Shown here in pieces: positions 855 through 9,500 of a DNA stretch of 64,000 nucleotides. The notes beneath the pieces were generated by a model. The model did no database searches, was not told where the DNA came from, and saw only the letters and a program-made list of their open reading frames with translations. Made by a program: the position numbers and the translations under genes. The stretch covers positions 9,488,001-9,552,000 of the forward strand of contig CM119371.1 of NCBI GenBank assembly GCA_051294905.1, in the 5' to 3' direction. Numbering within the stretch: position 1 is the stretch's first letter; each line of letters begins with the position of its first letter. The DNA comes from Botryllus schlosseri. Taxonomy: Eukaryota.

Positions 855-3348
855 CAGTGGTTCTCAACCGGTGTGCCGCGGCACACTAGTGTGCCGTTTA
901 CGTCTTGCAAGTGTGCCGCGAGCGATTTCATCGAAATTTTGAAATTATGCGCAAAATAATTCTAGTCTAATCCACACGATCATCAACGTAAAATCGAGCT
1001 TGATGTGAAGTTTGTATGCGCATTTGACATATGCTCGTAATCAATATCCGCCGCGAATTACCTTTACTCATCCCGCGTGCTTTGATGGCTGAATTCTAAT
1101 CCTTATTGTCTCCCCAATCACCAGCGAGAAATGAACTCCTTTGAAAGGGACATAGCAATCCACATTGCGATTGTTAGGACCTGTTAGGTAGCGTCGCGGC
1201 ATTTTCGTTAAAATTTAGGCTTGTATAGCACTATCGTTGTGCTACCGGCGATTGATATGAGAATTGAGAAGTAAGGTTGATCAAAATGTAATAGTTAACA
1301 AACTTCCTCGCCGCTGAGGTTATTAACTTGGTTTGTTGGAAATATATTGAACTGCAGGTGGCTGCCAGTAGAACTATTGAGGTATGGCTATATATCCTCA
1401 CGCGATCTGCGTGGAAATGTACTGTATAGCCTACGCCTCTGTATTCGTTGGTGGCGATCGTGCTTGACCTCGTCGATGCGATGGTTGTTGTTGTTTGTGG
1501 TATTCATGGTGTTTGTCGACTACTATGGTCATTTACACCAGGCCGATATTCCGTATTTTTGATTCCGTATCTGCCCACTTCCAGGCTTTTTGTAAGACAT
1601 CGCTTACGTGCAGCACCGTAACTGCCGCACCCCAAACCCCCCAATTGGGGGGGCCCGAGCTCGAAGGGGGCCCAAAATATTTTCGTGAATTAGCATAAAT
1701 CATAAAGTATTTTTTGAAAATTGATGCCAATTTTTCAAAATTTTTTCGCGCTGCGCGCGAATTCATGAAGCCGTTTATCTTTATTATTGGGTATTAGGCC
1801 ATATAACATGCGACTCCAAGAAGTGTGCCAGAACGATCGGCAGCGAGAAAACCTTGGCCGAAAAGGTGAATGCCCTTATGCTGAACGAAGACGGCGTTCT
1901 ATATATAAAATACACATAGGTTTAATTGTACATAGGCGCCTAAATGACTGACGCCGAATGTTCCTGTCTTTGCAATCTGAACCTCACAAGACAAATACCA
2001 TCCCGATGGGAAAAAAATTATGCCAGTGAAGAAATACCAATTTGAAATCGTGTGCGTCTCTTAGTTTAGAAGCCTACGTTTGGGCGATTCTATATGTTTT
2101 GATATAGCAGACTGGAAGTCACGACATAACATCATGTAACGAAGTCATACCAACGGGTCCGCCCGCCAGAAGATGTTTAATTATTATTTACGGGCCACCC
2201 CGTTTTCAAGACACTTCACTCAGCTCTACCGGTAAATCTAATTACGTGAGTAGAGAGGAAAATAAATTGATAGCATAATATATATGCAATCGCCTATCTG
2301 ATTGACCGATTTTATCATAAATTATCGAAAATTTTCGCGCTTCGCGCTGGCTCACAATACAGTACAGTTGATTTCGTGACAAACGCGAACAATGTGATGG
2401 GGGGTCGTTTTATCACCCTATGGGAGCCCAAGACCCACGTTTTTGGGGGCCTGACGAGGTGCTGTTTCGTTCCTGCCAACGGGTATACGCCTGAAGATGT
2501 TTAATTATTAATGGAGTGGTCCTACCTTTTCAAACACACCTCACTCAGCTCTACCGGCAAATCTGATTACGTGAGCAGAGAGAAGATAAAAATTGATAAC
2601 AATATAGGCAATTCCCGATCATACTGACCGATTCAATCATGAATTCTAGAAATTTTTCCGCGCTTAGCGTGCTTAGGCGACAAAAGCTGATCCACCAAAC
2701 AAACTCCCAATGATAATGATAAATAGCGGTAAACAGTGTATCGCCGGAGGGGGGTCTGGGGGGCTATGCCCCCCAGAAGTTAGGTCTATAACCCTATGGG
2801 AGGCCCAAGACCAAAGTTTTTGGGGGGGCCTGACGAAGTGCTGTTACGGCCCTGCTTACGTGGATGCAATGGTTAATAAAGGCAATTGTTTGTTGCAATA
2901 AAGGCAATTGTCATTTTACTTCAATTTTCCACGTCGTATTTGTGCGACACCGGATTTTCCGTTCTAGTCAATATAAAAACCAAATAAAGGGAGAGATTAC
3001 TTGCCGTCGAAGAAGAGATGAGAGTAGCATTATCAAATATGCGTCCAGACATTGAAAGGATATGCGCAAGAAGTCAAGCGCAAATTTCGCACTGACTTTG
3101 TCTGTGATAAAATTCAATAAATTGTTTTGTTTTCGCGAAACCTGTTCAATTTAACGCAGAAACATCTTGTATTGACTGCAGAGGTGGTCACATTATTCAG
3201 CGTTATTACTGAAGTCGAATCAGTTGAGTATTCTGGTAGTTCGCAGGTGCTGTAAGCCAAAAAAGTTCAGAACGGCTGTGCTGGTGTGCCGCGAACAATT
3301 TTTCATTTCCAAAGGGTGCCGCGAGGTCAAAAAGGTTGAGAACCACTG
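855..3348. mobile_element. Non-autonomous hAT (Charlie-type) element
   Basis: TIR CAGTGGTTCTCAACC at 855 and GGTTGAGAACCACTG ending 3348. Perfect 8-bp TSD CCCTAGCA at 847-854 and 3349-3356. Contains a nested element at 1611-2854. Confidence 0.9.
1611..2854 (+). mobile_element. Non-autonomous hAT-like element, family X, copy 1 (nested)
   Basis: Imperfect TIRs CAGCACCGTAAC / GTTACGGCCCTG. Perfect 8-bp TSD CTTACGTG at 1603-1610 and 2855-2862. Near-identical copy at 35563-36864. Confidence 0.9.
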
Positions 3349-3676
3349 CCCTAGCAGATTACCACTCGACTGTTGGGAATTATGCTGCATTACGTCACGG
3401 CGACGCTGCTACTCCGATTTCGATAGCCCAAGTTTACATCAGTCAAATATTCACACGAACCACCTGCGGCGATAACTGCGGTAACTCGGCAATCATGATG
3501 TTGTGGATATTTTATTCTACGCTACTGTAATCCACTCAAAGTTTCGGGAGTTTGTGTACAATTGTGCATGCGTGCACGGACTGATTACCAGAGAACCCGG
3601 CCCTTGGAGAACCCGGCCCTACCAACCCGGCCCTTGGAGAACCCGGCCCTTGGAGAACCCGGCCCTCGGAGTATTC

Positions 3677-3985
3677 ACCGGCAATCCTAATATCCCACCT
3701 CCGGCAACCCTAATATCCTCACCATACCCCTAATATCCCACCCCCGGCAACCCTAACCCTACCCCTAATATCCTACCCTAACCCTAATATCCCACCTCCG
3801 GCAACCCTAATATCCCACCTCCACCAACCCTAATATCCCACCTCCGGCAACCCTAATATCCCACCTCCACCAACCCTAATATCCCACCTCCGGCCACCCT
3901 AATATCCCACCTCCACCAACCCTAATATCCCACCCCCGGCAACCCTAATATCCCAACCCTAACCCTAATATCCCACCTCAACCTA
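3677..3985. repeat. Telomere-like ~23-bp tandem array (AACCCTAATATCCCACCTCCGGC) with AACCCTAACCCT runs
   Basis: About 13 degenerate units, most containing CCCTAA, just inside the left TIR of the MULE element. Confidence 0.85.
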
Positions 3986-4050
3986 CAGTTGCATTGCCCT
4001 TAACAGCATGCTCTGACCAACTTCACACAATCAATTGAATCAGGTAAATG

Positions 4051-4230
4051 TCACATCTAATATAATGGAATAAAAACGACAAAATCACATCTAATATAAA
4101 TAAAAACGACAAAATCACATCTAATATAAATAAAAACGACAAAATCACATCTAATATAAATAAAAACGACAAAACCACATCTAATATAAATAAAAACGAC
4201 AAAACCACATCTAATATAAAAGAACGACAA
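4051..4230. repeat. 30-bp tandem repeat (AAAATCACATCTAATATAAATAAAAACGAC) x~6
   Basis: Directly visible. Lies just 3' of the transposase stop codon and explains the spurious repetitive ORF at 4023-4208. Confidence 0.9.
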
Positions 4231-4251
4231 AATCACAAAAATCTAATCTAA

Positions 4252-6153
4252 TCAGGTTTGTTCTTCTTCAGAAATGGGCCCATTAATCCCAGCAATGTCT
4301 TTCAGTAGTCGACGGGGTGTCTTCCTCCCTTTCTTGAATTCCCTCCACAATTTATATAACTGTCCATCGACTAATCGGCACTCCTTGCGGCGGCGTTTTT
4401 TGATCTTTCCTTCAGAGAGGAGGGCCACCTGTTCACGCGAGAACGACGCTTCCTCATTCAAGAGAAGAATGAGGCTATACATTGGCATGTTGCGCCGTCC
4501 TCGCATGTTCAGGCGGTGGTGCCATCCCTCCAAGTCATTGTTCGTACGGATTGCTGTATCGTACACACTCCAATTCCGCGGTTTGAATTTTTTGGACGTG
4601 ATCCATGTGGTTTGAAAATACTGGAACAATGGTTCTAGTTTCGGGTCCGTGTGTTTAAGCCTTAGCCTTGAAAAACTTGGCTCTATGAGCTCAGCAGGCA
4701 TATAACACAGACTCATTAACTGCTTCATAGCAGAATGAGTGGCTTTTCTCGCGAAGTAATATTTCGACAGCCCCAACTCCTTAATCTTCCGGAACACACA
4801 TTGTGTGAAGTGGAAGGAGCAACCCTTCACGTCTACTCCAGTAAGCGCCGCAGATAACGATTTCCAAATGGCCAACTCAAAGTCGCATACCACTCTTTTT
4901 ACTCGGCATTCGCCGACAGCATCAATTACTTTGTTGAGGACAGCGACATAGTCTGCTTTCCGTCTTCGCGACATTAGGGCAAACACTAAGGGTATTTGCT
5001 TTGTTGCAGTCCCAGATCGAATAAATGCATGGATGGAGAATAGTTGGTAAAAGGGTTTTCGGACAACTTTGAACGTTGCATCCACATACCACGTTTTCGA
5101 ATTTTTTAGGAGGTCCATCTGCTGCTCAGAAGCAAATATGAGGTGACGGGCCCCTTCTAGTATGACATCTCCAAGCAGAAAATTTGATGGGATGTTGTCA
5201 ATATCAAGTTCGAAGTCGATTGTCTTCGGTTCCTGCGGCCTTGAACTTGCACGCGCATAGTTGGCTTGCCTTACCAAATTGTCAAGAGGTGTCAACCCCG
5301 GCAGAGGACGCTTATTATCAAGCAGGTGCTTGCTGCACACGGCTTGAGCAATCCGTGCAGCGGATTCAAAAGGATTCTTCATAGCTGTGGACTTTGTCTC
5401 CTTAGAAATCAAGGCGCTCTTGTAGACTCCGGGAACTCCAGGGTGAATGTGAAGACTCTTGCCCTTTGTAAAATTGGCACCATGCTGCTTCACCGTTGCG
5501 GAGCAGCGATTGTCTTTCCACCGATACTTGCACCTCCAAAGTACCGAGCCATCCTTGTTTTCCTTCTTCCTGGTGTAAGAGTGACCCCGACCATCAAACA
5601 GCATATCGCATCCTCTTTCCGATACGCCCTCCACAATATTATATGTTGACTGGTCCGAGCAAGACACCTCAGAACTGATCTGAGCAGCAGAAGGGTCGGA
5701 TAGAGACGATTCAACAATATCATCTTCCTGCAAAAAAAAAACATGGTTAAAACTCGATCACATCCAACAGCATAGCATTGTTCAACTTACGTGGTTGTCA
5801 AATGGCCCAGCTTGAGTTACATCAATAACACGTGCTCCTTCCAATACACCCTCAATAAGTTGAGCACCAGCAAGGTGATTAATTGGAGAAGGGGGCGGTG
5901 GCTATAAAATAAAGATGATTAAAACCTAATAACAGAAAGCAGGTTCTTCCGAATTACTCACAAGCAAATCAGGTCGACATTCCGAACATTGGAAGTCCAC
6001 ACTACAGTCTTCTTTAACAATTCGTAAGTAGTCTTCTCGAGACATAATATCTTGTGGGCCACAAGCGATGTGCTGCCACATGCCACACCCATCGCATTTC
6101 AGAGCAGCTTCTTCATCTAAAACCTCGCTGTTACATGAAACGCAGATATCCAT
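4252..6153 (-). CDS. PHD finger-FLYWCH-MULE DDE transposase, 3 exons (6153-5962, 5901-5791, 5727-4252), 592 aa predicted
   Basis: Exon 1 is a C4HC3 PHD-like finger (CVSC..CDGCGMWQHIAC..FQCSEC). Phase-0 introns 5961-5902 (GTGAGT..TTTTATAG) and 5790-5728 (GTAAGT..TTTTGCAG). Exon 3 has FLYWCH (YTRK..WRC..C..HIH) and MULE motifs YVDATFK, VVCDFE, GCSFH, TNNDLEGWH. Confidence 0.85.
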
Positions 6154-6544
6154 CTTCTTATACTTCCTTCCCTCGCCAAGTCAAATCAATACTGAGCCGG
6201 CCACGCGTGGTCGATATGTGAAAGTCGCGTTCTTTCCCGCGCTTGGCGCTTGCGCAATCCGTGATCACGTGATCTGATCACGCCGTGACTGCGTGACCTA
6301 CGCATGCCCTGACCTCCTTACAAGACCGACAAATCAGTTGATATTAACATTATTACTTTATTAATTCATATTAATACTTGTGAATACACTTAATTTCAAA
6401 ATTTCCCAAGGAATTCACCGAGGGCCGGGTTCTCCAAGGGCCGGGTTCTCCAAGGGCCGGGTTGGTAGGGCCGGGTTCTCCAAGGGCCGGGTTCTCCGGC
6501 AACCCACGGACTGATTACACCAGCATTCAAGGACACATAATTTG

Positions 6545-9500
6545 TAGGGATGGTGTGAACGTCAGGTTCACATTCGGGTTCTGTGTGTGAACCTCAGAAA
6601 TTTAGAGGCTCACGTTCACAAACAAACCTTGGTTGGTTCTGGGCTGTGAACCTTTTTCATATGTTGCAGTTTCTCACTTTTTTTGTTGAAATTCTTTGCA
6701 TTTCAACTGGTACTACTTTATGCATAGCGCTGACAGCATACAAAAATCAACACTAACCGGGCATGCACCTGCCACTCTCAAAAATTTTGCTTGCTTTGTT
6801 ACAAAAGTCTGCTCGAAATATCCAGCTTTCCGTTTGTGAATATTTAATTACTCTCTGCTGTGAGTCTGACCCGCAATCACACAACATCAATTGCTAAATA
6901 CACTACATGTAGGTAGTCAGAGAGTGATGCTTATTCAATCAATCAATGAAATTGATGTCGTTGTCTAAAGTAAAAAATCTAGCAAGAGCATGGAGTCCAA
7001 CTCGATTTCATATGTCTATTGTATCATAAAAACCAAATACGGGCGACCGGAGTGTTGGATACTGCTGTATAACTTGTTAATAGGGTAACACCACTGAGCT
7101 ATATTAATACCCGTTTTACACTCTGCTCAATATCAACGTAGCTATACTTAGACACCTAGTACATTGTCCGGTCTATCCTAGACCGTTAAGGCGTAACTTA
7201 TATTCCCTTGGAAGTCCTCGTCGAAATTGTTGGTGAAGCGACGGGAGATATGGATTTTATGGGTTTATGATATCACTTGATTGCCCCAGTTGATACATAT
7301 GGCGACGTTTAAAACGTCAATATGTACTTCAGCATTGTGGCACTATGTGGCCATTCATACAAGCTATTACTTCACTGAAATATAGGGTTGGAATTAGCAA
7401 TATGACGTCACGTGACGTCATGAGGTTCACGTTCGCGTTCACACAGCACTTTTCAAAAAGGTTCGCGTTCACACGAACCTGAACCTTTCAGAGGTTCGCA
7501 CCATTGCTAGTGTGAACGTCAGGTTCACATTCGGCTTTTGTGTATGAATTTAGAGCAGTGGTTCTCAACCTTTTTGGCTTCGCGGACCCCTTTTGACCGT
7601 CACGGACCCTCGCGGACCCCCTCAAGTTTTAGTTCAATTTTCGCTCTATTATGGTGCAACCTTCATCTGTCTTGTGCAAATATGAACTGTAGGCTCGTGA
7701 TAAACAGCAAAATAATGATTTTTCTTGAAGATAACATCATACTCTTTATGTAGAAATTGGTGGACTTTTATTATTCCCAAGCTAATTTTGCTGCTGTCTT
7801 TCTTGAAGTACGTGTTCGTGTCTTGAAATATATGTTCATATTTTATGAACATATCACGTCCAGCATCTAGCGCAGGTACGGGCAACATACGGACCGCTGG
7901 CCGGATTCGGCCCGCGACGATATTTTGATCGGCCCGGAGAGAGTTTCTACCGTCAAAGTGAAATTCTAATCTAAAAGTATAGACAAATTTTATGCTCCAA
8001 AGAATGGATCCAAGTTTTCCAACCAGAGAAAGACTGTCATGAAACGACTTGTTCTGTTCGGGTTTACATATATATTTACGAGCAATGATTTTCGACCATG
8101 AACAATTGAACATTAACAAGACAAGGCTGCATACCAATATAACTGGTGATATGAATTTCAGGGTTGGAGCGTAGTGCTTTGATAGCAACGAAACACTCCT
8201 TGTTCATCAAAAAATCAGCCTTGTCGATAGGGCATCCGCAATAAGAATGCGCAAAATCTGATAGCCGAGCTTTAAGAGCAGGTATATCATTGTCCGATTT
8301 ATGACGAGTGTCAGCCGAAAATATTCGGGTTCATTTCAATATGAATATACTATTCAATTGTATATTAAAGTTCTGTACCTCTAAGAAGCTGCTCCATGCA
8401 TTGGGACAAATTATGGAAATACTTCGGAATTTTTTATTTCGAACGACTGTTCACTAATTTGATGAGACTGACAACTTCAAATCGAGAATGTTTCGCAGAC
8501 ATTACGAAGTCACCCTGATTAACGTTACATCTCCACATTTTTCTCCATATCAAAACGTCTCTAAACAGCAATATGTTTGTATCAGCAGGTTATTGGAAAA
8601 TTGGCAATGAAAATGAGTTTCCACACTACGATAGTCCATGTCAGACGATTATTACGATGATAGGAGTCATGAGGTTTTAGCAGTTGTGGTGCAAAACTAC
8701 CTCATGCCTTCTCAAATTATAAAAATAAAATAAAAATTAGTTTATCAACCATGTTAAAAATTTAGAGGTCTCGCGGACCCCCTGAAATTGCTTTGCGGAC
8801 CCCTAGGGGTCCGCGGACCCCCGGTTGAGAACCACTGGTTTAGAGGATCACGTTCACGTTCTGGGCTGTGAACCTTTTTGGTATATTACAGTTTATCACG
8901 TCATTATAACATCTTTTGTTGAAATTTCTGCATTTCAACTTGCATGCATGCATGCATGGTGCTGGCAGCATAACAAAAATCAACACTTAATGAGCATGCA
9001 ACTCGCCAATCTCAAATATTTTACTTGTTTGTTTTGTTAAAACAGTTTGCTCGAAATATTCATTTTCCGTTTGTGAATGTTTAGTGACTCTCTGCTGTGA
9101 GCTTGATCCGCAATCACACAGAATCAATAACGAAATACACTGCATTTAGGTAGTCGGCAAATGACGCTTATTCAACCGATCAATAAAATTGATATAAAGG
9201 CTATATCGCTGTCTAATGTAAAAATTCGAGCAGACGTACGGGACCCATCTCGATTTGATATGTTTGCTGTATCTTAAAAACTAACTCCGTGTGATTGAAG
9301 TGAAGGCTACTGCATAACATGTTTATGGAATAACATCGGTAACAAGTATAGATACCCATTTTACACTCTGCAATAGTCACACGCCAAACACAATGTCAGG
9401 TCAGGTCTAAATCGTTAAGGCGCAAGCTTAGATTCCCTCAGCAGTCCTCGTCCACATTGTTGGCTAAGCGACGAAAAATATTGATTTTATTTGATGGCAT

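Follow-up and report, generated by a model that had tools for sequence, protein, structure and literature searches.

A recently mobile Mutator-like transposon of Botryllus schlosseri with a predicted Pygopus-type PHD finger in its transposase

Coupling of a chromatin-mark reader to a DDE recombinase is known from textbook cases of reader-guided recombination, the PHD finger of RAG2 and the chromodomains of retroelement integrases such as those of chromoviruses. The RAG2 finger sits on a separate subunit, unlike that of the element described here, and the chromodomains belong to retroelement integrases and have another fold. To our knowledge, the choice of chromatin targets by cut-and-paste DNA transposons is poorly understood. 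PHD fingers are already known in Mutator-like elements, e.g., in Rehavkus as described in PMC6446971. Phantom, a subclass among Mutator elements (Marquez and Pritham, 2010), according to PMC3169594 and PMC6446971 carries FLYWCH as an N-terminal finger ahead of a MULE DDE core, lives in animal hosts, makes target duplications of 8-10 bp, and has foldback-like or repeat-rich ends, with a minisatellite after the ORF in the aphid Phantom. The present element is like Phantom in these respects, its 8-bp duplication falling inside that range. It differs from Phantom, to which it is likened by description, in that two small 5′ exons encode, upstream of FLYWCH, an additional PHD finger of predicted Pygopus type and a Pro-rich linker. 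Rehavkus, a Repbase group placed as an outgroup or a member of MULEs, carries a PHD finger (PMC6446971; bioRxiv 10.1101/2024.12.02.626372). By description, it shares with our element a transposase with a PHD finger, a single ORF, a minisatellite before the 3′ inverted repeat and long ends holding tandem repeats. However, its duplication is listed as 9 bp in Table 1 of PMC6446971, against 8 bp here, both for the copy of the window and for 15 out of 20 derivatives, and the hosts listed there are arthropods and annelids. In Ciona and C. elegans, some MULE transposases have a C-terminal PHD finger (Babu et al., 2006). As in our case, PHD is fused to a DNA-binding finger of the WRKY-GCM1 superfamily and a MULE transposase, but as described in PMC1702500, theirs is an insert-containing WRKY-GCM1 domain after two classic zinc fingers, without FLYWCH, and the PHD finger is C-terminal instead of N-terminal. 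The caution of a first-pass annotation of this DNA, that PHD domains occur in some other DNA transposons, is thus borne out by Rehavkus and by these MULEs. A PHD-like cross-brace zinc finger is also found on the piggyBac DNA transposase; unlike the finger of the present element, it is C-terminal, and it is described as binding transposon-end DNA and not histones (PMC5861402).

The window, i.e., the whole stretch of 64,000 nucleotides of Botryllus schlosseri that was analysed, contains a minus-strand Mutator-like DNA transposon of 2.9 kb at 3583-6504 (Table 1). Its gene and strand coordinates were all verified on the minus strand, and its terminus was set by the boundaries of derivative copies. 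The inverted arms at 3585-3676 and 6411-6502 are complementary at 96% over 92 nt, in line with the near-identical ends reported before. The 3′ inverted repeat is built of a tandem repeat with a period of 16 bp and 5.2 copies, and two minisatellites precede the 3′ end of the element. The marks of the Mutator superfamily (MULE), a catalytic domain with D, D, C/DxxH and E, terminal inverted repeats and a target duplication of about 8-11 bp, are all found, with CxxH in the domain and 8 bp for the duplication.

Table 1. Features of the element, with positions in the window, strand and basis of each assignment.
Feature	Position	Strand	Basis
Left 8-bp target site duplication, CACGGACT	3575..3582	.	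identical 8-mer at 6505-6512
Terminal inverted repeat, gene 3′ side, terminus GATTACCAG...	3583..3676	.	tandem array of some five 16-bp units
Minisatellite, 23-bp unit x 13, from ORF to 3′ inverted repeat	3678..3979	.	tandem-repeat scan
Minisatellite, 30-bp unit x 6.2, directly past the stop codon	4051..4237	.	tandem-repeat scan
Exon 3, FLYWCH and MULE, 491 aa and stop	4252..5727	-	ORF, Pfam, alignment
Intron 2, 63 nt, GTAAGT...T10GCAG, phase 0 (predicted)	5728..5790	-	comparison of copies only
Exon 2, Pro-rich linker, 37 aa, PPPPSPINH...FDNH	5791..5901	-	splice model; present in paralogues
Intron 1, 60 nt, GTGAGT...TATAG, phase 0	5902..5961	-	RNA-seq joint 5901/5962
Exon 1, PHD finger, ATG, 64 aa	5962..6153	-	splice model, Pfam, AlphaFold2
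5′ untranslated or promoter region (putative), from inverted repeat to ATG	6154..6410	-	position only
Terminal inverted repeat, gene 5′ side, terminus GGTTGCCGG... read inward	6411..6504	.	repeat scan and copy boundaries
Right 8-bp target site duplication, CACGGACT	6505..6512	.	read from sequence

It had been proposed that separate reading frames are joined through two phase-0 GT-AG introns and a linker exon of 111 nt. The coordinates of this model were verified, and the spliced CDS of 1779 nt gives a protein of 592 aa with no internal stop; reading through either intron meets in-frame stops. In the predicted order, a PHD finger and the Pro-rich linker precede the FLYWCH finger, and the MULE catalytic core comes last. 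Exon 2 matched no Pfam family. The frame of exon 3 is open right from the acceptor site, and near its 5′ end there is no start codon of its own that homologues use. RNA-seq evidence comes from raw-read runs under the same species label, in which 43 reads of X22 and 16 reads of X24 were aligned. The joint of intron 1, skipping 60 nt, is present in one X22 read with 55 nt on its shorter side and in one contig of X1, whose origin from RNA is a guess; in three more X22 reads, overhangs of 14 nt match the exon 1 end apart from one synonymous change. Of the two predicted junctions, that of intron 1 was therefore seen, in few reads, and that of intron 2 (5791/5727) was not listed in four raw-read runs. 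Since 42 of the 43 X22 reads align in part only and 34 are only 95-99% alike, many of them may stem from paralogues. An intron-less DNA copy as the source of the X1 joint was considered and rejected within the limits of the sample: all seven paralogous loci spanning the boundary keep intron 1, and the eighth (L023) is without the stretch at the boundary of exons 1 and 2.

Comparison of copies covers both introns. A contig of X15 spanning 5666-6080 has three indels, all within introns, intron 2 included. The exon order is kept in the paralogues L014, L016, L017, L018 and L025, and the splice sites of both introns are kept in four of them (L014, L016, L017 and L025); intron 2 of L018 keeps the acceptor and has GGAAGT as its donor. 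Exon 2 lies between exons 1 and 3 in these five loci and in L023, and donor and acceptor of intron 2 are kept even in the sister subfamily L040/L041. Purifying selection acts on the PHD exon, with dN/dS against paralogues of 0.13-0.54 in all 15 pairwise comparisons. Since paralogues repeat the order and spacing of the exons together with their splice sites, and proteins of other phyla repeat the domain order, the architecture is beyond chance. The three-exon model is thus supported, for intron 1 by thin RNA-seq and for intron 2, which is probably removed as well, by comparison.

The Phantom-like core that had been recognised in exon 3 was recovered by Pfam, MULE scoring above its cut-off (E 1.2e-8, 35.7 bits against 27.6; 4801-5091) and FLYWCH slightly below (E 3.1e-4, 21.3 bits against 23.6; exon-3 residues 37-95, 5443-5619). 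Homologues pass the FLYWCH cut-off, e.g., P0009 with 39.5 bits, and W64, C66, C75 and H93 of this finger are near-invariant in an alignment of 27 sequences. The catalytic residues, numbered within exon 3, are D216 (5080-5082), D282 (4882-4884), C303xxH306 (about 4810-4821) and E400 (4528-4530), with spacings of 66 between the two D and 118 between D and E. In the same alignment E400 is near-invariant and the others are invariant, so that the D/D/CxxH/E motif is indeed intact. A comparison of the catalytic part with solved structures found no relative, its sole match being a T-cell receptor chain (E 0.32).

Exon 1 scores slightly below the 24-bit cut-off of Pfam PHD (E 7.6e-5, 23.1 bits). All eight zinc ligands of a C4HC3 finger are present (C4, C7, C20, C23, H28, C31, C56 and C59), together with a pocket tryptophan, W26, and a helix at residues 39-48. 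The AlphaFold2 model has a mean pLDDT of 81.7, and the best matches listed by Foldseek among solved structures are all PHD fingers, led by MLL3 PHD6 and the Pygo1 PHD finger (TM 0.67-0.71 for Pygo1). The predicted model therefore supports the PHD fold that had been proposed for this exon. When a family profile of 19 sequences was compared with solved structures, Pygo2 (E 4.1e-11) and Pygo1 (1.5e-10) came first, followed by MLL1 PHD3 (4e-7). The finger of the window subfamily alone gave weak matches to solved PHD fingers (E 0.009-0.15) in which Pygopus was not first (E 0.11-0.15 for Pygo), so that the strong match is one at the family level. The precomputed annotation PF27108 (PHD_Pygo) is found on 12 homologues. 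By sequence comparison, the finger is tentatively classed here, newly, as Pygopus-type at the family level.

Like the Pygopus finger (PF27108; PDB 2vpe, 2vpd, 4up0), that of the window is a C4HC3 cross-brace with identical C-x2-C-x12-C spacing and a loop 2 that is unusually long and contains a helix, although its place is the N-terminus of a transposase, where that of Pygopus is the C-terminal end of a Wnt co-activator. The residues of Pygo1 that bind H3 were taken from the description by Fiedler et al. (2008; PMC2726290). Aligned to the window finger, they give V350/V11, D352/D13, A356/A17, I357/L18, E360/D21, W366/W26 and Y379/Y42, where the equivalents of V350, A356, I357, E360, W366 and Y379 count as kept; E10-V11-L12-D13 stands at the site of E-V-N-D in Pygo. 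Among 13 family members, V or I is found at the V350 equivalent in all, A or G at A356 in 11, a hydrophobic residue at I357 in all, an acidic one at E360 in 11, W at W366 in 12 and Y at Y379 in all. Of the K4me cage (Y341, D352 and W366), W366 has its counterpart in W26, and the wall of this methyl-lysine cage is more variable: the Tyr341 equivalent, Asp2 in the window, is aromatic in 4/13 (5/13 counting a His), and the Asp352 equivalent is Asp in 2/13. As judged from this alignment, most residues of the H3-tail pocket of Pygopus are kept and one residue of the methyl-lysine wall is without equivalent in the window. The contacts of Pygopus with BCL9 HD1 (M374, T375, A378 and L382) correspond to M37, S38, D41 and I45. 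I, V or M is found at the first in 13/13 and S or T at the second in 12/13, but Ala at the A378 equivalent in 0/13, so that the contact set is not matched.

At least 20 short derivatives have the same ends as the window element. The 8-bp duplications of 20 of them are perfect in 15, match at 7 of 8 bp in two and are missing in three. In one derivative, identity reaches 99% over 611 nt, and its PHD exon is 100% identical. Perfect duplications in at least 15 of the short derivatives indicate recent mobility of the family, and the suggestion of recent activity is thereby supported. The autonomous element itself is probably still active; among the copies scored, that in the window has the only uninterrupted exon 3 of its subfamily (>90% identity), and a copy of 92% identity has one TAA in exon 3. 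The sister subfamily L040/L041 (78% identity, 79% at the aa level) carries inverted ends of its own, and its three-exon models of 526-530 aa are intact and have no PHD finger. Searches upstream of the 72-79% subfamilies L038-L043 (tblastn at E <= 0.01; family HMM on six-frame ORFs) found no PHD exon, the best scores (E 0.07-0.09) falling on a short repeated motif. The fusion of the finger to the transposase, as first described for the window copy, is thus retained in the paralogues and absent from the sister subfamily. Because this subfamily has intact frames, the finger is not needed for keeping a coding lineage.

With exon 3 as the query, 90 homologues reached E <= 1e-3, the best of them E 3.4e-164, and PHD, FLYWCH and MULE are found in one continuous protein in 19 of them. 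Their hosts are lancelets, molluscs, a tunicate and an acorn worm, including Branchiostoma (two proteins), Tegillarca, Mytilus (two), Styela and Ptychodera. The three closest homologues (P0001-P0003; 43-54% identity) have no finger, and these may be partial gene calls. The PHD-FLYWCH-MULE design is thus common to relatives in several animal phyla. No description of this domain order was found in the literature searched, whose scope lay outside most subscription journals and Repbase Reports, and among the papers listed for Pygopus, PHD and transposase together, none was relevant by title or abstract start.

On balance, we favour, with some reserve, an autonomous cut-and-paste transposon of the Mutator superfamily (FLYWCH-MULE, Phantom-like) with an accessory Pygopus-type PHD finger, for which tethering to histone H3 is the preferred reading. 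One gene of three exons would be spliced to encode the 592-aa transposase. Its C-terminal DDE (RNase-H-like) core would cut and join DNA, leaving 8-bp target duplications, and the FLYWCH zinc finger would most likely recognise the 16-bp repeats of the inverted ends. The N-terminal finger, as an accessory module, may hold the N-terminal tail of H3, probably methylated at K4, and the transposase would then be tethered to accessible, active chromatin, its targets being steered by histone state. A bolder form, in which the finger shares true homology with that of Pygopus and actually reads methylated H3 tails, so steering a whole clade of animal Mutator transposases to active chromatin through a module in common with a Wnt co-activator, seems unlikely to us. 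Modest weight is given to the possibility that the gene model is right and the finger does not read histones, but binds DNA of the element itself (its minisatellites or the 16-bp repeats of the ends), or serves multimerisation of the transposase or contact with a host protein. The cysteine-rich domain of piggyBac, also a PHD-like cross-brace, is described as binding end DNA sequence-specifically (PMC5861402), and ends made of repeated short units could require more than one DNA-binding module; here, however, FLYWCH is already a plausible DNA-binding domain. The variation at the Tyr341 and Asp352 equivalents also fits a finger without a histone ligand, whereas the positions for the constant part of the H3 tail (I357, E360, W366 and Y379 equivalents) are the best-conserved non-ligand positions, and the nearest solved relatives by profile and fold are histone-tail readers. 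As for a partner protein, the rear face of the Pygopus finger binds BCL9 HD1 and at two of the four contacts the family has the same residue or a conservative substitute, but the residue at Ala378 is charged or polar in most members.

The remaining readings concern the gene and the copy. It is improbable that the PHD exon lies outside the working transposase, being a small ORF by itself or a 5′ exon used now and then as an alternative, and that the active enzyme is FLYWCH-MULE alone. Such an enzyme would agree with the persistence of the PHD-less sister subfamily, with the fingerless closest homologues and with the unlisted joint of intron 2; yet exon 3 is without a start codon of the kind described above, the joint of intron 1 is present in RNA, the domains are continuous in other animals, and both purifying selection on the PHD exon and splice-site conservation argue against it. 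It is highly improbable that the window copy has become either a dead relic or a gene domesticated by its host. Low RNA-seq depth and its being, among those scored, the sole copy of its subfamily with an uninterrupted exon 3 would suit this reading, whereas the intact ends and target duplication, the complete set of catalytic residues, the derivatives with mostly perfect duplications and the nearly identical one speak against it. A single-copy domesticated gene is disfavoured because the family is multi-copy.

The preferred reading, tethering through histone H3, makes the element of interest for target choice. It is an intact, apparently recently mobile candidate with a reader-like finger inside the transposase itself, the nearest solved relative of the finger at the family level, Pygopus, has a mapped histone pocket, and the PHD-less close lineage in the same genome would, if the reader model is true, serve as a natural control for an insertion-site effect. 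Because of these three properties, the question of histone steering is directly testable; they may also offer a clue to how the Pygopus finger arose. If the finger is a true homologue and a reader, Pygopus and a transposon would have exchanged a domain in ancient times, in either direction. If it binds DNA or nothing, the element is another Phantom- or Rehavkus-like MULE.

Some minor observations were made at the borders and over the window. A 14-bp duplication, CACGGACTGATTAC, was considered and rejected; the boundaries in 20 derivatives set the terminus at GATTACC/GGTTGCC, with 8-bp duplications. Rfam and tRNA scans over the whole window gave no matches. On the 5′ side of the gene, some RNA-seq depth was observed over 6204-6515.

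The element is a Mutator-like transposon that has recently been mobile, is flanked by 8-bp target duplications and carries a spliced gene for a three-module transposase. Each inverted end repeat is made up of 16-bp tandem units, about five per arm. Recent movement, as the first-pass annotation had suggested, is recorded in 20 internally deleted derivatives (0.86-1.6 kb) from the same genome, which was searched for copies over 495 Mb in 219 contigs. Their termini are asymmetric and the same in all 20, with GATTACCAG on one side and GGTTGCCGG on the other. Their 8-bp duplications are perfect in 15, match at 7 of 8 positions in two, both of which sit in a duplicated segment, and are absent in three. 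One derivative on contig C3 shares 99% identity across 611 nt, and its PHD exon is 100% identical. Thus, the family moved recently. No copy scored other than the one in the window is an uninterrupted candidate for supplying transposase; the sole other full-length member of its subfamily, on contig C13 and 92% identical, is interrupted by a single TAA in exon 3.

Features of the transposon and its gene (window positions)
Feature	Position	Strand	Description
Element	3583-6504	gene on minus	2,922 bp
Inverted end repeats	3585-3676 + 6411-6502		92 nt each, 96% complementary
Target duplication	3575-3582 + 6505-6512		8-mer CACGGACT, abuts element at both sides
Minisatellite, 30 bp x 6.2	4051-4237		between stop codon and 3' inverted repeat
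Minisatellite, 23 bp x 13	3678-3979		between stop codon and 3' inverted repeat
Exon 1	6153-5962	minus	64 aa
Intron 1	5961-5902	minus	60 nt, GTGAGT...TATAG
Exon 2	5901-5791	minus	37 aa
Intron 2	5790-5728	minus	63 nt, GTAAGT...T10GCAG
Exon 3	5727-4252	minus	491 aa + stop

The three-exon model of the transposase gene is very probably correct. The exon and intron coordinates first proposed were exact on checking; the joined frame of 592 aa is stop-free, and either intron, if translated through, meets stops. In Pfam, exon 1 matches PHD (E 7.6e-5, 23.1 bits against a cut-off of 24), exon 3 matches FLYWCH (E 3.1e-4, 21.3 bits against 23.6) and MULE (E 1.2e-8, 35.7 bits against 27.6), and exon 2 matches no family. 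The catalytic D/D/CxxH/E set, initially described as intact, held up in an alignment of 27 sequences, where D216, D282, C303 and H306 (exon-3 numbering) are invariant and E400 nearly so. Of the two predicted splice joints, 5962/5901 was seen in a few reads, and 5791/5727 (intron 2) was not among the joints listed for the four data sets, namely X22 and X24, raw RNA-seq runs labelled as this species, and contig sets X1 (presumed RNA, a software guess) and X15 (kind unspecified). The joint 5901 to 5962 skips exactly the 60 nt of intron 1, which reads CT..AC on the plus strand and GT..AG on the gene strand, and is carried by one X22 read (shorter side 55 nt) and one X1 contig (depth 8). Three further X22 reads stop at 5901, and their 14-nt overhangs reproduce the last bases of exon 1 with a single mismatch, which is synonymous in the exon-1 frame. 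RNA support is thin, with 43 X22 and 16 X24 reads aligned in total, and paralogues contribute to the former, since 42 of the 43 aligned in part only and 34 are just 95-99% alike. Relative to the window, an X15 contig over 5666-6080 has three indels (-3 at 5732, -1 at 5749, +7 at 5912), all intronic.

Related copies in the genome keep the same gene structure. By tblastn there are at least 26 matches to the PHD exon and at least 81 to exon 3 at E <= 1e-10. Five copies (L014, L016, L017, L018 and L025) retain the order and spacing of the three exons and two introns together with donors and acceptors, the one exception being the intron-2 donor of L018, GGAAGT. The introns of L014 each differ in length from the window's by 4 nt (intron 1 longer, intron 2 shorter), so that neither can be read through. 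Every one of the 15 pairs formed by six copies gives a PHD-exon dN/dS within 0.13-0.54. A zinc ligand was lost in two copies (C31Y in L015, C4S in L017).

The exon 3 protein has 90 homologues at E <= 1e-3 (best identity 54%), among them annotated proteins of Branchiostoma, Mytilus, Tegillarca, Magallana, Pecten, Gigantopelta, Saccostrea, Styela, Ptychodera, Anneissia and Palaemon. Searched with a profile of the finger, 19 of the 90 carry it at the N-terminus; 12 of these had served to build the profile, and seven, including Mytilus edulis, Tegillarca and Ptychodera, are new. The order in Pfam is PHD, FLYWCH, MULE, and the spliced window protein aligns with such continuous proteins over its whole N-terminus. 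The architecture is therefore of old standing and broadly distributed, and did not arise as a local accident. Two sister copies, L040 and L041 (78% nucleotide and 79% aa identity), have related inverted ends of their own, and intron 2 and its splice sites are also present in them; no PHD exon was detected within 3 kb of them by tblastn or the family HMM. Their 5' part gives a stop-free three-exon model of 526-530 aa, which opens with the first few residues of window exon 1 and passes directly into linker-like sequence. Given how the finger is distributed among homologues, its loss through an internal deletion would be the simplest reading. As the L040 and L041 frames are intact, the finger is not needed for maintaining an intact coding lineage. 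Two 73-74% relatives, L043 (G000:C3:18902904-18910319) and L042 (G000:C16:8890953-8898356), encode uninterrupted 593 and 567 aa, in which the exon-3 region starts with two tandem copies of its initial ~100 residues, FLYWCH part included; these would be a double-FLYWCH variant without the PHD finger.

An AlphaFold2 model of the finger (19-row alignment, mean pLDDT 81.7) shows a pair of short strands, with a helix spanning residues 39-48. In Foldseek it is matched best by H4-bound MLL3 PHD6 (E 5.4e-4) and the Pygo1 PHD (TM 0.67-0.71), followed by BPTF, MLL1 PHD3 and others. The window finger alone matches those of KMT2C, KMT2D and Set3 (E 0.004-0.013), and its subfamily by itself matches Pygo weakly (E 0.11-0.15). 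The family profile places Pygo2 (E 4.1e-11) and Pygo1 (1.5e-10) ahead of MLL1 PHD3 (4e-7), fly Pygo (9e-7) and MLL3 PHD6 (1.6e-4), and PF27108, named PHD_Pygo in the Atlas, is among the precomputed Pfam assignments of 12 homologues. Since the ligand spacing C-x2-C-x12-C is identical in Pygo1 and the window finger, positions map one to one, and the binding residues given in Fiedler et al. 2008 (PMC2726290) were compared across 13 family members. In the K4me pocket, V350 and A356 of the cavity base correspond to V11 (V or I in 13/13) and A17 (A or G in 11/13), and the cage walls D352 and Y341 to D13 (D in 2/13) and D2 (aromatic in 4/13). The T3 pocket includes A356, I357 and Y379, the latter two being L18 (hydrophobic in 13/13) and Y42 (Y in 13/13). 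E360, invariant and touching A1/R2, is D21 (acidic in 11/13), and the essential pocket divider W366 is W26 (W in 12/13). With the pocket residues mostly kept, the predicted groove that would take the constant portion of the H3 tail looks preserved. The BCL9-contact residues M374, T375, A378 and L382 correspond to M37, S38, D41 and I45, with Ala at the A378 equivalent in 0/13; methyl-state specificity and BCL9 binding look not preserved.

From family knowledge, the DDE core would perform cut-and-paste transposition, and FLYWCH, described as a WRKY-GCM1-type DNA-binding fold (PMC1702500), would bind the repeated 16-bp end units. Residue conservation suggests that the PHD finger may hold the H3 tail and tether the enzyme to accessible chromatin. 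Histone reading by the finger is put forward tentatively, at slightly short of an even chance. The main alternative, in which the finger binds DNA or protein instead, has a precedent in the cross-brace domain on the piggyBac transposase (PMC5861402) and is considered unlikely. Taken whole, a mobile element with a spliced transposase and a histone-reading finger seems a reasonably probable reading.

The element is a variant form of known kinds. Phantom has the same FLYWCH and MULE pair (PMC6446971, PMC3169594). Rehavkus shares the PHD finger and the minisatellite before the 3' repeat (PMC6446971), and its long ends with tandem repeats (bioRxiv 10.1101/2024.12.02.626372) resemble the 16-bp units. 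However, its duplications are listed as 9 bp (PMC6446971) against 8 bp here, and on this comparison of descriptions the element was not filed under Rehavkus. Other MULEs were noted in 2006 to carry a C-terminal PHD finger (PMC1702500), whereas it is N-terminal here. The early caution on novelty was justified by the fingers of Rehavkus and these MULEs. A literature search, with subscription journals and Repbase Reports outside it, found no paper on the N-terminal PHD-FLYWCH-MULE order or tying Pygopus-type fingers to transposases; PHD-FLYWCH-MULE proteins themselves already have public database entries, where they stand as uncharacterised.

Some derivatives (L013/L044, L015/L057) retain the PHD exon in full along with intron 1; their deletion starts a few bases inside exon 2 and ends at the stop codon or beyond it, so some non-autonomous copies could still encode a free PHD peptide. 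Five loci on one C3 chromosome arm (L028, L031, L032, L033 and L035; 8.08-9.38 Mb) have diverged PHD-exon matches (53-65% aa) with an exon-2-like stretch 300-400 nt downstream and no exon 3 within 3 kb; they are either clustered, related fragments or another element family. The 23-bp minisatellite unit holds CCCTAA (TTAGGG on the gene strand), a telomere-type hexamer, and is abundant elsewhere in the genome, as contig depth over 3678-3979 is extreme (up to ~20,000 in X1). The right flank, 6516-6600, is a high-copy repeat (summed contig depth ~1049 for X1 and ~929 for X15, compared with ~37 in the left flank); a stretch near 7510-7547 (about 7490-7560) resembles it, with similar translations, and another family derivative, L056, is inserted in a copy of it at a different position. 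A 46-nt inverted pair (3308-3353 and 7551-7596, 87% complementary) flanks the element at a distance and is probably part of another repeat family.
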